DNA of 64,000 bases from Candidatus Fermentibacteraceae bacterium (GTDB taxonomy: Bacteria > Fermentibacterota > Fermentibacteria > Fermentibacterales > JCC-6): contig JAMOUX010000011.1 of NCBI GenBank assembly GCA_027067855.1, forward strand, positions 12,528 to 76,527, given 5' to 3'. The translations under genes and the position numbers were made by a program. Numbering within the stretch: position 1 is the first letter of the stretch; the number at the start of each line of letters is the position of its first letter. Under the pieces are notes generated by a model, which ran no database searches, had not been told where the DNA came from, and was given only the letters and a program-made list of their open reading frames with translations. Shown here piece by piece: positions 18,346-22,401 of the stretch.

Positions 18346-19002
18346 TCAGGGCGCAGGCACTTCTTCCGCCGGTACCGAGGGATCCGCCGCGGCATCGGTA
18401 CCCACCACCACGACCACCCCGGTATGTCCCGGAGCCACCGCCTCTATGATGTCGCCACCGGCCTGCACGGGCACCGAGGTATGGGAAGACAGCCAGCCGG
18501 AAAGGGAATCGGCGACCAGTTCAGCCTGCTCGCGGGACCCTTCGCTGTACAGGACCAGGGTAATATCCGGGGCCCCGGTGTCCTCGACCGTCACCGGCCT
18601 CGTACCCCTGGACGCCATCACCATCTCGAGCCTGTCCACGGTGGAACGCACCGCCGGTATACCCACGATGGCGACCGGCGGAAATGCCGGCCTCTCCGGA
18701 GCGATTTCCGTTCCGACCGTGTCCGCAGTCTTCCCCGACAGATCCGAATCTATGCGCCTGACCCCCATCCCGGCATCTTCCCGCAGGGGCGAATCCGGGT
18801 ACTTGTAGATGAGAGTGTTGAAAGTTTCCCTCGACGCGGTGAGACTCCCCCTCAGGTACTGCTGGCATGCCCTGGTGAAAAGGGCGGTATCGGTTTCACC
18901 GGTCATGTACCCCGAGTGGTCGTAAGCTTCATCACCGCCGCAACCCGCGGCCAGCAGAACCACGCAGGCCAGCAAAGCGAGTTCATACCTCACCATCGTC
19001 AC
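18346..19002 (-). CDS. Hypothetical lipoprotein (possibly LytR_C-like C-terminal domain)
   Basis: Lipobox LLAAGCGG. The C-terminal segment DITLVLYSEGSREQAELVADSLS loosely resembles LytR_C. Confidence 0.35.
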   Translation of the reverse strand: MTMVRYELALLACVVLLAAGCGGDEAYDHSGYMTGETDTALFTRACQQYLRGSLTASRETFNTLIYKYPDSPLREDAGMGVRRIDSDLSGKTADTVGTEIAPERPAFPPVAIVGIPAVRSTVDRLEMVMASRGTRPVTVEDTGAPDITLVLYSEGSREQAELVADSLSGWLSSHTSVPVQAGGDIIEAVAPGHTGVVVVVGTDAAADPSVPAEEVPAP

Positions 19003-21193
19003 CTTCCGTTCTTTCCAGTTCCTCGGGGCTCACCAGCACTTCCCTGGCCTTGCTGCCCTGGAATTGACCGACTATACCGGCCTGCTCCAGCATGTCTATC
19101 AGCCGGGCGGCCCTGGAATACCCCACCTTGAGCTTTCTCTGCAATATGGATATGGAGCCCTGCTGAGTGGATACGACGATGTCCCTGGCGGTCTCGAACA
19201 GCGGGTCATTCATCTCGACATAGGCGGACCCGCCGGCAAGGGATGCATCCTCCTCCGGAAACTCGTACTCGTAGGGAACCTCGGGCTGGTCCCTCAGGTG
19301 CTCCACTATCGTCCTGGTCTCTTCCGTGGATATGAAGCTGCCGTGCACCCTCAGGGGTTCCGGAGAAGCGGCGGCCAGGAACAGCATGTCCCCTTTGCCC
19401 AGGAGCTTTTCCGCCCCGTTCATGTCGAGAATCGTTCTCGAATCGGTCTTGGACTGGACGTTGAAAGCGATGCGCGAGGGGAAATTGGCCTTTATCACGC
19501 CGGTTATTACATCCACCGACGGGCGCTGCGTCGCCAGGACCATGTGTATGCCCACGGCCCTGGCCATCTGGGCCAGCCTCTCTATGGCGGGTTCTATCTC
19601 CCTGGAGACCGTGATCATGAGGTCGGCCAGTTCATCTATTATCAGTACGATATATGGTATTCTCTCCCCTTCGGACTCCGGGGACAGCTTGGAGTTGAAT
19701 TCCCTTATGGACCTCACCCCTATCCTGGCAAGCCTCTTGTACCTGCTCTCCATCTCCTTGACCAGCGCATCCAGAAGCAGGGTGGACTTTTCCCGCTCTA
19801 TCACCACGGGAGCCCAGAGATGCGGGATGTCTTCGTAAATCGAAAGCTCCAGCATCTTGGGATCTATCATGGCCAGCTTTACTTCCGAAGGTCTCCGGGT
19901 AAGAAGGATGGAAGCGATTATCGAGTGGATGCAGACACTTTTGCCGGAACCGGTGGCTCCGGCGATGAGCAGGTGCGGCATGGAAGTCAGGTCGGCGGCG
20001 AAGGGTTCCCCCCTGACCTTCTTGCCAAGGGCCACGGGTATTATCTCGTCCCCCACCTCCTCTATGACTTCCCTCAGGTAAACCGTCTCCGGCACCGGGT
20101 TCGGCACCTCTATACCCACGGCTCCCCGCCCCGGAACCGGGGCCAGTATTCTTATCCTCTTGGCCCGAAGGGCCATGGCAAGGTCATCGGAGAGAGCCAC
20201 GAACTTGTTCACCTTTATGCCCGGGCCGGGCTCCACTTCGAACCTGGTTATCACGGGGCCCGGGTACGAGTTGGAAATCCTGCATTCTATGCCGAAATCC
20301 ATCAGCTTCTCCAGGAGGAGATCTTCCAGTTCTTTCAGCTTCTCCCTGGTCATTCTCACCCTGTGACGCTCGTCGGGCATCTCCAGGCATGATATGGGCG
20401 GCGGAACATAACCGTCGTCACCGCAGTCGCTCCATTCGGCCTGCCTGCGGACGGGTTCCGGGGTTCGAATCTCCCGGCGTGTTTCAACCCTCTTCCTCTC
20501 TTCCCGGAAGGGCCTCGATTCTTCCGGCGCCGGAACGGGTTCCACCCTGAAGGGGACATCCGGCACAACCTCGGGCTCTTCACGGATCCACGCGCTTCCC
20601 GCCCCGTCACGTGAATCTTCCTCCGGGCCCGCGACGTCCCGCTCCGGCTTTCTCCGCGACTTCATTCCTCCAAGCAGGGTCCTGACCTTCAAGGCCAGCG
20701 ACCGCAGGTCGCCGCCTATGTCCCACCCGGTGAACACCACGAGGCTGGTGGTGAACGCCGTGAACAGCACCAGGAATGCTATGGGAGCGCCGGTCAGCGG
20801 CACGAGTATCTCACCGATGCCGGCCGCCACCTTCCCTCCGGGAACCCCGTGGAACTCCGGGACTCCGGCGCTTACCACGAAATCCAGGACCGCGGTGAAG
20901 AAGTATCCCGTCACGGCCAGGGCGGAAAGTATTCGGAAGCCGGCCCCGCTGAACCCCAGGCCCAGGAGGCGCGCCCCCGCCAGGAACAGGAACAGCGGCA
21001 CCAGGACCGACAGCCAGCCGAGTTCGCCGATCATCCAGCTCCGCAGCGTTCCCGGGAACCCTTCCGACGGAACGGCGAGCATCACCGAAACCGCCGTTGC
21101 AAGGAAAAGGACCAGGACTATCAGCACGTTCTTCCACCTGCCGGAAGTCCTGCGCCTGCGCCTGCTTCTTCCGGTCCGCTTCCGGCCGGCCAC
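18983..21193 (-). CDS. ftsK: DNA translocase FtsK
   Basis: N-terminal TM helices, Pro/charged linker, motor domain with Walker A (GATGSGKSVCI) and a C-terminal gamma domain (SISILQRKLKVGYSRAARLIDMLEQAGIVG). The likely start is a GTG at 21193, overlapping the TAG of the upstream HU-like gene by one nt (TAGTG). The track start 21319 would overlap that gene by 127 nt. Confidence 0.9.
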   Translation of the reverse strand: MAGRKRTGRSRRRRRTSGRWKNVLIVLVLFLATAVSVMLAVPSEGFPGTLRSWMIGELGWLSVLVPLFLFLAGARLLGLGFSGAGFRILSALAVTGYFFTAVLDFVVSAGVPEFHGVPGGKVAAGIGEILVPLTGAPIAFLVLFTAFTTSLVVFTGWDIGGDLRSLALKVRTLLGGMKSRRKPERDVAGPEEDSRDGAGSAWIREEPEVVPDVPFRVEPVPAPEESRPFREERKRVETRREIRTPEPVRRQAEWSDCGDDGYVPPPISCLEMPDERHRVRMTREKLKELEDLLLEKLMDFGIECRISNSYPGPVITRFEVEPGPGIKVNKFVALSDDLAMALRAKRIRILAPVPGRGAVGIEVPNPVPETVYLREVIEEVGDEIIPVALGKKVRGEPFAADLTSMPHLLIAGATGSGKSVCIHSIIASILLTRRPSEVKLAMIDPKMLELSIYEDIPHLWAPVVIEREKSTLLLDALVKEMESRYKRLARIGVRSIREFNSKLSPESEGERIPYIVLIIDELADLMITVSREIEPAIERLAQMARAVGIHMVLATQRPSVDVITGVIKANFPSRIAFNVQSKTDSRTILDMNGAEKLLGKGDMLFLAAASPEPLRVHGSFISTEETRTIVEHLRDQPEVPYEYEFPEEDASLAGGSAYVEMNDPLFETARDIVVSTQQGSISILQRKLKVGYSRAARLIDMLEQAGIVGQFQGSKAREVLVSPEELERTEGDDGEV

Positions 21194-21723
21194 TATACCT
21201 GCCTCACCGTCACGTCCCGGGAATCGGAAGGAAACGCCGGGTCTTTCTCGAGCCTGCCGTCTATCCAGTACTGGTACCTGAGCACCTGCCCGGAAACGGT
21301 TTTCATTTCCCCCACCCAACTGCCGTCGGGAAGTTTCTGAAGAGGATTCCTGTCCGGATCCCAGTCATTGAAATTACCCACCACGGAGACCCTTCGGGCG
21401 TTCCGCGCGGAAAGGCAGAGGAAGTCCACGGTCACCTTCCTGCCAAGGCTTTCCCGGACGGCGTTCTTCAGGGTATCGTAAGGCCTGAAGACCGGGCGTA
21501 TCCTGGGAGGTATGTCGATAAGTCCTTCCCCCTGCGGATCCCTGGCCCGCCGTTTCTTGGCCTCCCTGGTCTCGAAACAACCGAATCCTCTGAAATAGAT
21601 GCTTTCGCCGCGACACAACCCCTCGGTCACGACATCGATGAAAGCATCCAGCACCGTCCTGGCCACTTTCCTCCCGACGCCCGTTCTTCGGGCTATCTCT
21701 CCGGCCATCTCGTCCTTGGTCAT
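21193..21723 (-). CDS. HU/IHF-family DNA-binding domain fused to a C-terminal CBM48/AMPK-beta glycogen-binding-like domain
   Basis: N-terminal MTKDEMAGEIARRTGVGRKVARTVLDAFIDVVTEGLCRGESIYFRGFGCFETREAKKRRARDPQGEGLIDIPPRIRPVFRPYDTLK aligns to the HU fold (GFGTFEVRER...NPQTGEEIEIPA). C-terminal VSVVGNFNDWDPDRNPLQKLPDGSWVGEMKTVSGQVLRYQYWIDGRLEKDP follows the CBM48 pattern (GSFNNW...G.W......G.YKF.VDG.W..DP). Start taken at MTKDEM; the track ORF extends to 21786. Confidence 0.65.
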   Translation of the reverse strand: MTKDEMAGEIARRTGVGRKVARTVLDAFIDVVTEGLCRGESIYFRGFGCFETREAKKRRARDPQGEGLIDIPPRIRPVFRPYDTLKNAVRESLGRKVTVDFLCLSARNARRVSVVGNFNDWDPDRNPLQKLPDGSWVGEMKTVSGQVLRYQYWIDGRLEKDPAFPSDSRDVTVRQV

Positions 21724-21876
21724 CGTCCCCCCGGCGGCTGCGGCATGAACCCTGGAACATGCCGATTGCATATCTCTTCTTGGCAACGGAACTTGAAGTC
21801 AATACTTCACCGGGTTCCACCCGTCAACCTGCGTTCCGGCCTTCTCCCGCGGTCCCGGCCCGGTTATCATTTCCCC

Positions 21877-22401
21877 ATGGAAAACGTTTCGGCGCTCAGG
21901 ATATTCATCGGCGGTCCTCCCTGCTCCGGCAAGACGGAGACCGGCAGGCGCCTCGCATCCATGCTCGGCGTACCTTTCCTCGACCTCGACGAACTGGTGG
22001 AGAAGAGAGCGGGACTCCCGGTGCGAAGAATCTTCGGGGAATTCGGCGAGGAAGGTTTCCGGAACCTGGAAAGCGAGGTGCTCCTGGAATGGTCCCGCAA
22101 GGAAGGGCCTTTCGTAATGGCTCTCGGCGGGGGAACTCTTCTGCGCGGAAACAACCTGGAAATCGTTACGACACTGGGAACGCTGGTCATGCTCACCGCC
22201 CCGGACAACATCCTTGCCCGCCGGAACGCCTCCTCCCCGGGTAAACGTCCCCTGGCGGAAGACGGCGGGCGGCTGAAGAACCTCCTGGAATCCCGGAAGG
22301 AACACTATTCGACCCTCCCCGCTCCCATCGACACCGGCTCCATGACTCCCGAAGAAGCCGCCGGGACCGTACTCGCCCTCGTCACCGGGGAAGACGGCTG
22401 A
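21877..22401 (+). CDS. aroK: Shikimate kinase
   Basis: IGGPPCSGKTETGRRLASMLGVPFLDLD is a P-loop NMP-kinase fold with the LID region. It is only the 3-prime 525 nt of track ORF 21097..22401; the upstream part is antisense to ftsK/HU. Confidence 0.85.
   Translation: MENVSALRIFIGGPPCSGKTETGRRLASMLGVPFLDLDELVEKRAGLPVRRIFGEFGEEGFRNLESEVLLEWSRKEGPFVMALGGGTLLRGNNLEIVTTLGTLVMLTAPDNILARRNASSPGKRPLAEDGGRLKNLLESRKEHYSTLPAPIDTGSMTPEEAAGTVLALVTGEDG

Follow-up and report, generated by a model that had tools for sequence, protein, structure and literature searches.

Why should a protein that packages the bacterial chromosome carry a carbohydrate-binding module (CBM), and does such a module still bind the polysaccharide that its family name implies? 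HU is the most widespread of the bacterial chromosome-packaging proteins and is normally a bare domain of 90 residues. The question is raised by a gene on the minus strand of a 64,000-nucleotide stretch of DNA, hereafter the window, from a Candidatus Fermentibacteraceae bacterium of the candidate phylum Fermentibacterota (GenBank assembly GCA_027067855.1, contig JAMOUX010000011.1, positions 12,528 to 76,527 of the forward strand). Its 176-residue product, here called HU-CBM48, had been predicted from the letters of the sequence to join an HU domain to a glycogen-binding domain of the CBM48 family, and to end upon the start codon of the division DNA translocase gene ftsK.

Our analyses show that the fusion of HU with CBM48 is fixed across Fermentibacterota and is apparently undescribed. 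The HU half retains the hallmarks of its superfamily and the added half is conserved almost as strongly, although two of the three principal residues by which related modules contact alpha-glucans have decayed. We tentatively favour, with a probability of about 0.45, the view that HU-CBM48 is a conserved housekeeping HU of the phylum that has recruited a non-canonical ligand- or protein-binding handle.

An HU protein with a second folded domain

The product is encoded in one uninterrupted frame, opening with ATG at 21721-21723 (MTKDEMAGE...). The frame can be extended upstream to a TTG at 21786; the ATG was taken as the real start because homologues are almost all exactly 176 residues long and begin MT[KR][DE]EL. 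Gene calling on the source contig (ENA ERZ27262658, k141_552240) gave a protein 100% identical to the window product (P0001).

As judged from sequence, HU-CBM48 has all of the testable defining features of the HU superfamily. Pfam family PF00216 (Bac_DNA_binding) matches residues 1-89 across profile positions 1-89 of 90 (E 5.5e-22; 78.2 bits against a cut-off of 22.4), and HU proteins of known structure in the PDB match the same residues at E values of about 1e-14 and 35-39% identity. The N-terminal half of an AlphaFold2 model superposes on the HU structure 5lvt in Foldseek with a template modelling (TM) score of 0.86, the predicted structure comprising two helices, a sheet with its arm and a further helix at residues 83-93. 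In an alignment of 81 family sequences, the RGFG-F core (R45, G46, F47, G48 and F50), F79, the arm residues R58, R59, R61 and P63, and I71 and P72 are all invariant; R58, R61 and P63 correspond to the DNA-contacting arginines and the arm-tip proline in the numbering of Bacillus stearothermophilus HU. The mean net charge of this half across the family is +4.9. Since the hallmarks of HU are fully conserved, it very probably dimerises, and binds and bends DNA, in the usual HU manner. HU-CBM48 falls below every NCBIfam equivalog cut-off for HU-alpha, HU-beta, IHF-alpha and IHF-beta (the best being IHF-alpha, 55 bits against 111; HU-beta scores 43.8 against 157), and on these scores it is a generic HU and not one of the named HU/IHF orthologues. 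No second HU gene was found by tblastn within the window.

Over residues 1-94 the protein resembles classical HU from Lactococcus lactis (5LVT), Thermotoga (1RIY) and B. stearothermophilus (1HUU) in fold and length, sharing with them the dimer-core phenylalanines, the arm arginines and P63. It departs from them in possessing a further folded domain of 82 residues at the C-terminus, and in three conserved cysteines that are not typical of HU: C37 (68/81), C49 within the GFGCF core (78/81), where HU usually has T, S or K, and C103 in the added domain (74/81).

Profile and fold alike place the C-terminal half in CBM48. Pfam CBM_48 (PF02922) matches residues 104-157 at 28.7 bits, above the curated cut-off of 22.4, and precomputed hits to the same family are on record for most of the homologues; AMPK1_CBM (PF16561) reaches 16.9 bits in the window protein, under its cut-off of 26.8, and has recorded hits in some relatives. 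The N-terminal CBM48 of the branching enzyme GlgB matches residues 79-167 in a PDB sequence search (E about 1e-5), and the resemblance to GlgB, again to the N-terminal part of the enzyme, appears in NCBIfam too. In the AlphaFold2 model, which was built from a 34-sequence family alignment and has a mean predicted local distance difference test (pLDDT) score of 90.6 with every residue at 70 or above, a seven-strand beta domain begins about two residues after the HU helix and forms a sandwich of the CBM48/CBM20 type. The predicted architecture is correct, both Pfam families scoring above their cut-offs and the PDB matches agreeing.

This added domain is under selection about as strong as that on the HU half. 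Mean pairwise identity is 61% in the HU half and 55% in the CBM half, and invariant columns number 15 of 94 and 13 of 82, respectively. The hexapeptide L131-P-D-G-S-W136 is identical in 81/81 sequences, and M128, Q129 and a basic residue at position 130 precede it in 78-80 of them; E139, Q146 and R174 are also nearly invariant. Neither L131, P132 and S135 nor E139, Q146 and R174 are conserved in CBM48 proteins with multiple repeats.

When 5.8 billion proteins were searched through a word index, 84 clusters proved to have the HU-CBM48 architecture, and every source name given for them belongs to Fermentibacterota (Ca. Fermentibacteraceae, Aegiribacteria and Sabulitectum). Scanning one genome per GTDB species recovered the gene in 59 species, every named one of which is a member of Fermentibacterota/Hyd24-12, including Ca. 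Fermentibacter daniensis, Ca. Sabulitectum silens and Aegiribacteria MLS_C; the sole two other matches were plain HUs of Bacteroidota. In two species representatives of Ca. Sabulitectum silens (L026 and L065) the frame is seemingly broken, in one by an in-frame stop at codon 5 and in the other by a probable frameshift, both likely to be errors of sequencing or assembly in metagenome-assembled genomes. An exhaustive HMMER search of 1.84 billion representatives at 50% identity, made with a profile of the whole protein, gave, among its best 150 matches, two full-length proteins (176 and 178 residues) together with fragments, the remainder being many-repeat CBM48 proteins or tandem HUs. HU-CBM48 is thus likely to be rare outside Fermentibacterota, bearing in mind that these best 150 matches reach down to about 93 bits and that an independent fusion scoring lower would not appear among them. 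Nine candidates for other fusions (P0127, P0163, P0171, P0173, P0183, P0186, P0191, P0209 and P0217) are tandem HUs, and P0085, considered as a distant relative, is an N-terminal fragment of GlgB. One protein of 196 residues (P0097) has an HU of the family type at residues 1-99 (152 bits against the family profile), followed by WD40 repeats instead of CBM48; it most likely comes from a chimeric or misassembled contig, and if real would be a second type of HU fusion in the same lineage.

The original prediction had held the architecture to be unusual, and among the matches listed the fusion is indeed confined to Fermentibacterota. Nor is it a known family already annotated as such: records label it 'HU family DNA-binding protein', 'nucleoid DNA-binding protein' or 'hypothetical protein', and a literature search for HU joined to CBM48, or for nucleoid proteins of Fermentibacterota, found no description. 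A survey of HU architectures (Burroughs et al. 2017, PMC5499826) describes fusions with transmembrane, FtsN/SPOR, LysM, winged helix-turn-helix (wHTH), immunoglobulin (Ig) and glycine-rich regions, and the term 'carbohydrate' has no mention in it. The nearest precedent for such an architecture is the Ig-fused HU-HIG subclade of Bacteroidetes (PDB 4FMR, PMC5499826), which also places a C-terminal beta-sandwich after an HU domain, in the Fibrobacteres-Chlorobi-Bacteroidetes (FCB) superphylum. HU-HIG genes are multi-copy and fast-evolving, form lineage-specific expansions in Bacteroidetes and lack conserved operons (PMC5499826), whereas HU-CBM48 occupies one conserved locus per genome among the loci examined, evolves slowly, sits in a fixed operon and has a sandwich of the CBM48 class. 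We rejected membership of HU-HIG on the fixed operon, the high conservation and a weak, partial match to its profile (PF18291; 28.6 bits over residues 2-52) that PF00216 outscores; the precedent differs in HU clade, type of sandwich, tempo and gene context.

Decay of the canonical glycan site and origin of the added domain

The sequence of the AMPK beta1 CBM was confirmed against PDB 1Z0M and aligned to the family hidden Markov model (HMM), so that the positions of its glycan-contacting residues could be compared among the 81 HU-fused sequences, about 620 copies of CBM48 repeats and 117 stand-alone sequences (Table 1). The repeat copies come from the other top matches of the profile search, which are mostly secreted multi-repeat proteins.

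Table 1. Residues found at positions equivalent to AMPK beta1 glycan contacts in three groups of CBM48 sequences.
AMPK beta1 residue	HU-CBM48 position	HU-fused (81)	Repeat copies (~620)	Stand-alone (117)
W100	121	W 80/81	W 93%	W 116/117
K126	151	Q 20, C 13, S 12, R 11, K 9	K 86%	A 85/117
W133	158	L 34, R 14, W 7	W ~79% of aligned	L 80/117
N150 (approximate)	171	N 30/81	not aligned	not aligned

Of the three main contacts in AMPK-beta (W100, K126 and W133), W121 is the sole canonical glycan-stacking residue that HU-CBM48 has kept, and the full set of contacts of the AMPK-beta/PTST/SEX4 type (W100, K126, W133, L146 and N150) is not retained. The window domain also stops some 4-6 residues sooner in the loop where AMPK has L146 and N150, and unlike the CBM48s of E. 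coli GlgB (1M7X), AMPK beta, SEX4 and PTST it is not mounted on an enzyme or kinase scaffold. By this comparison the canonical glycan site is largely gone. Because the domain is a CBM48 by profile and fold and yet lacks the canonical residues, it should not inherit the label "glycogen-binding".

When a profile was made of the C-terminal domain by itself, the closest relatives proved to be a large set of stand-alone proteins of about 91-105 residues (P0237-P0353), which have no signal peptide, are annotated as 'isoamylase early set domain-containing' and come from Verrucomicrobia and others. They score 64-74 bits per single domain at 35-47% identity, whereas each domain of GlgB and of the repeat proteins reaches about 30-36 bits. 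The fused domain and this family have in common the motifs F-x-C in the first strand, A..VS.VG.FN.W, PM, PD[GR][SA]W and Y.F.VDG.L..DP. Both have lost the K126 and W133 equivalents, and C103 of the added domain is conserved in both. They differ at position 146, where the stand-alone proteins have H (GHH.Y.F.VDG.L) and the fusion family has Q, and in that no stand-alone protein is fused to HU. The sequences therefore suggest that the added domain was recruited from a small cytoplasmic family of stand-alone CBM48-like proteins, and that decay of the canonical site predates the fusion, since the stand-alone family shows the same losses.

Four genomic contexts of the stand-alone family (among loci L069-L076) contain no HU, ftsK or glycogen genes nearby, and offered no consistent hint of function. 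In two contigs, PVC-group-like (Planctomycetes-Verrucomicrobia-Chlamydiae) by their neighbouring domains, a protein of about 300 residues is encoded directly upstream of the CBM48-like gene; searches of Pfam, NCBIfam and PDB sequences gave no match to this neighbour, which may work together with the small family. Secreted proteins with 4-18 tandem AMPK1_CBM/CBM48 repeats (P0086, P0089-P0096, P0101 and others) dominate the top of the exhaustive search; a common type has about 480 residues, four repeats and a signal peptide, and the repeat proteins keep the canonical W-K-W.

The ftsK junction and the gene neighbourhood

The TAG stop of HU-CBM48 (21193-21195) shares one base, its G, with the in-frame GTG (21191-21193) of ftsK. 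This overlap, which had been put forward as a sign of co-expression, can be read directly as TAGTG in the window, and the gene caller used the same ftsK start on the source contig. Features of the locus are collected in Table 2.

Table 2. Coordinates of the features discussed; positions are those of the window except where a locus is named.
Feature	Position	Strand	Basis or remark
HU-CBM48 coding sequence, 176 aa, stop included	21193..21723	-	Open reading frame (ORF); identical protein on source contig; homologue lengths
HU domain, residues 1-94	21442..21723	-	PF00216, PDB HU matches, Foldseek, invariant residues
DNA-binding beta-arm, residues 53-75 (RRARDP...IP), with R58, R61 and intercalating-type P63	21499..21567	-	HU structure alignment; 81/81
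CBM48-like beta-sandwich, residues 95-176, ~2-residue linker from HU helix 3	21196..21441	-	
W121 codon, AMPK beta1 W100 equivalent	21361..21363	-	HMM alignment; W in 80/81
Near-invariant loop M128-Q-K-L-P-D-G-S-W136	21316..21342	-	81-sequence alignment
G-rich Shine-Dalgarno-like run GGGGGGA, 2 nt upstream of HU-CBM48 ATG	21726..21732	-	Sequence only; putative
TAGTG, HU-CBM48 stop overlapping ftsK GTG by one base	21191..21195	-	Sequence; start also called on contig
GAGG, Shine-Dalgarno-like for ftsK, within codons R174-Q175, 8 nt before GTG	21202..21205	-	Putative ribosome-binding site
ftsK, 736 aa from GTG, co-oriented and overlapping	18983..21193	-	ORF; FtsK_alpha, FtsK_SpoIIIE and FtsK_gamma domains
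Predicted lipoprotein, ~216 aa, overlaps ftsK end, precedes lolA	18346..18996	-	Conserved cluster member
Shikimate kinase aroK, divergent	21877..22401	+	ORF; PF01202 in all loci
~300-aa neighbour of stand-alone CBM48-like gene	L069:4102-4998 and L075:3996-4949	+	Copies 66% identical

A script run over all of the loci fetched, about 60 in number, found that the ftsK start overlaps or abuts the HU-CBM48 stop in nearly all of them, through an overlap of one nucleotide (TAATG, TGATG), an overlap of four (ATGA, GTGA) or a gap of 0-2 nucleotides (TAGnTTG). The sequence GAGGCAG precedes the junction in most loci, and no terminator-like site was found between the two genes. The sequence prerequisite for translational coupling is a phylum-wide feature, and it suggests that ftsK may be translationally coupled to HU-CBM48.

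The surrounding gene order is conserved down to 47% identity: aroK, usually divergent, stands on one side, and HU-CBM48 is followed by ftsK, the lipoprotein gene, lolA and a radical-SAM gene of the methylthiotransferase-like kind. The 153 nucleotides between aroK and HU-CBM48 (21724-21876) should hold the promoters; no match to the sigma-70 consensus was found in this spacer, a scan that is uninformative for Fermentibacterota. Shikimate kinase is called at 146 residues on the source contig; ATG 21877 gives 174, keeps the P-loop GGPPCSGKT and fits the homologues of 173-182 residues in other loci, so that the database call seems too short. The predicted lipoprotein was first listed as an ORF opening at an upstream GTG, with MTMVRYELALLACVVLLAAGCGG as its initial residues; it is conserved at the same position in all loci read, at about 200-216 residues, matches nothing in Pfam, and resembles BamD only weakly (24 bits), at its N-terminus. 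In E. coli K-12 (L077, NC_000913.3 931000-940000) the corresponding order is lrp-ftsK-lolA-rarA; adjacency of ftsK and lolA, with the gene of a small DNA-binding protein upstream of ftsK, is common to very distant phyla.

Proposed function, alternatives and significance

Under the explanation that we favour, the N-terminal 94 residues would form an HU dimer that bends DNA through its proline-tipped beta-arms, and the 82-residue sandwich, following the last HU helix with nearly no linker, would cause two modules to be displayed per dimer; by analogy with known HU structures these would sit on the flanks of the dimer body, away from the arms. The module would have been taken from the small cytoplasmic family after that family had already dispensed with two of the three alpha-glucan contacts, and it would now make a protein contact, either bridging one HU dimer to another or engaging a partner in division or segregation, or would bind a ligand other than canonical glycogen. 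HU-CBM48 would head the operon, with ftsK translated by re-initiation at the overlapping stop and start, so that the amount of FtsK would stay in constant proportion to that of HU-CBM48, the proportion presumably being low. We have low confidence in the handle as such; the added domain is probably neither a classical glycogen anchor nor an extra DNA-binding surface. A repurposed CBM48-like fold had been offered as a secondary possibility in the original prediction, and it fits better than the tether proposed there, given a stand-alone subfamily with the same losses and with motifs of its own.

Several observations weigh against this explanation. The predicted TM score (pTM) of the AlphaFold2 model is 0.60, which makes the relative placement of the two halves unreliable, and no partner was found for the proposed protein contact. 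The term "housekeeping" reflects nothing beyond ubiquity and conservation. The surroundings of ftsK may partly be an inherited gene order rather than a functional link. Furthermore, the nearest relatives of solved structure, CBM48s of the GlgB type, have no W133 equivalent and yet bind malto-oligosaccharides (PMC6243121), and genomes of Hyd24-12 contain the full pathways for making and degrading glycogen but none for another storage polymer (PMC5030696). With the W121 platform and the GlgB-like sequence added to this glycogen metabolism, alpha-glucan binding is still plausible.

These last points lead to the best placed of the alternatives, which we nevertheless regard as unlikely: that HU-CBM48 is an adaptor between nucleoid and glycogen, each CBM48 binding alpha-glucan weakly and gaining avidity over many DNA-bound dimers, so that glycogen granules or soluble glucans are held on the chromosome, for partition at division or for a compaction that senses carbon storage. 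The CBM_48 score lies above its cut-off, the W100 equivalent and FN.W motif persist in 80/81 sequences, and adjacency to ftsK fits a theme of segregation. An analogy is provided by PhaF and PhaM, which tether storage granules to the nucleoid in bacteria that accumulate polyhydroxyalkanoate (PHA); it is a conceptual one, resting on the pairing of a DNA-binding module with a storage-polymer module, for the folds are unrelated, and in HU-CBM48 binding to the polymer is unproven and the canonical site decayed. Residue conservation does not support the tether between nucleoid and glycogen that had been suggested for this protein, the K126 equivalent being Lys in 9/81 and the W133 equivalent Trp in 7/81: each is lost in about 90% of members, despite conservation in the roughly 620 repeat copies, and the N150 equivalent is Asn in just 30/81. 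In Arabidopsis PTST, a double mutant of the two equivalent tryptophans abolished starch binding (PMC4339375). The AMPK1_CBM score below cut-off, and the want of glycogen genes in the four contexts of the stand-alone subfamily with the same losses, point the same way. The broader picture, in which the chromosome of Fermentibacterota is coated by a nucleoid protein that also binds glycogen and the nucleoid acts as a scaffold for storage granules, is weakened by the same residues, and we hold it to be rather improbable. Were it true, glycogen granules would be partitioned with the chromosome, or nucleoid compaction coupled to the state of carbon storage: a polysaccharide counterpart to the hitch-hiking of PHA granules, built into the main HU and co-expressed with FtsK.

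There is a slim chance that the sandwich instead extends the DNA or RNA interface, adding lateral nucleic-acid contacts that alter bending or bridging. Mycobacterial HupB/Hlp and Streptomyces HupS set the example of an HU core with a lineage-specific C-terminal addition that modifies nucleoid function; their additions are low-complexity, Lys/Ala-rich DNA-binding tails, whereas that of HU-CBM48 is a folded and neutral beta-sandwich. The short linker would put the domain beside HU helix 3, conservation extends to a few basic positions (R/K96, K/R130 and R174), and accessory domains that bind DNA, wHTH among them, occur in other clades of HU (PMC5499826). However, the net charge of the CBM domain has a family mean of 0.1, with extremes of -9 and +7, which argues against a conserved nucleic-acid surface, and on charge we judged DNA binding by the extra domain unlikely. 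Acidic residues are conserved as well (D133, D155 and D161 invariantly, E139 nearly so), R174 may be constrained by the AGG of the ribosome-binding site for ftsK embedded in its codon, and the fold class is that of a carbohydrate-binding module and not a known nucleic-acid binder.

Slimmer still is the chance that the domain is an inert or structural appendage, which only stabilises or solubilises the HU dimer or persists as a frozen accident. The decayed canonical site, and the failure to find a partner or ligand, would be expected of such an appendage; a domain nearly as conserved as the HU half, with a surface loop (LPDGSW) identical in 81/81 and no loss in 59 species, would not, and related stand-alone proteins are maintained alone in other phyla. 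That separate genes for HU and a small CBM48 were merged by a frameshift, mis-assembly or wrong gene call, as the occurrence elsewhere of stand-alone homologues of about 94 residues might suggest, is already refuted by the unbroken frame in the window, by the same 176-residue product in 84 clusters from independent assemblies and in 59 species genomes, and by HU and CBM48 never being seen as separate genes within Fermentibacterota.

For annotation, the protein offers two cautions: a Pfam match to CBM48 does not by itself mean glycogen binding, and the label 'HU family DNA-binding protein' hides half of HU-CBM48. Fermentibacterota are uncultured, yet the protein is small and easily studied in recombinant form. 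On what is apparently its main HU, the whole phylum carries a folded accessory module as a fixed feature, and keeps it under selection about equal to that on the DNA-binding half. The ligand of this module would reveal a new wiring of nucleoid proteins to storage metabolism, division or DNA bridging, and would provide the first functional handle on a widespread family of cytoplasmic CBM48-like proteins of about 94 residues.

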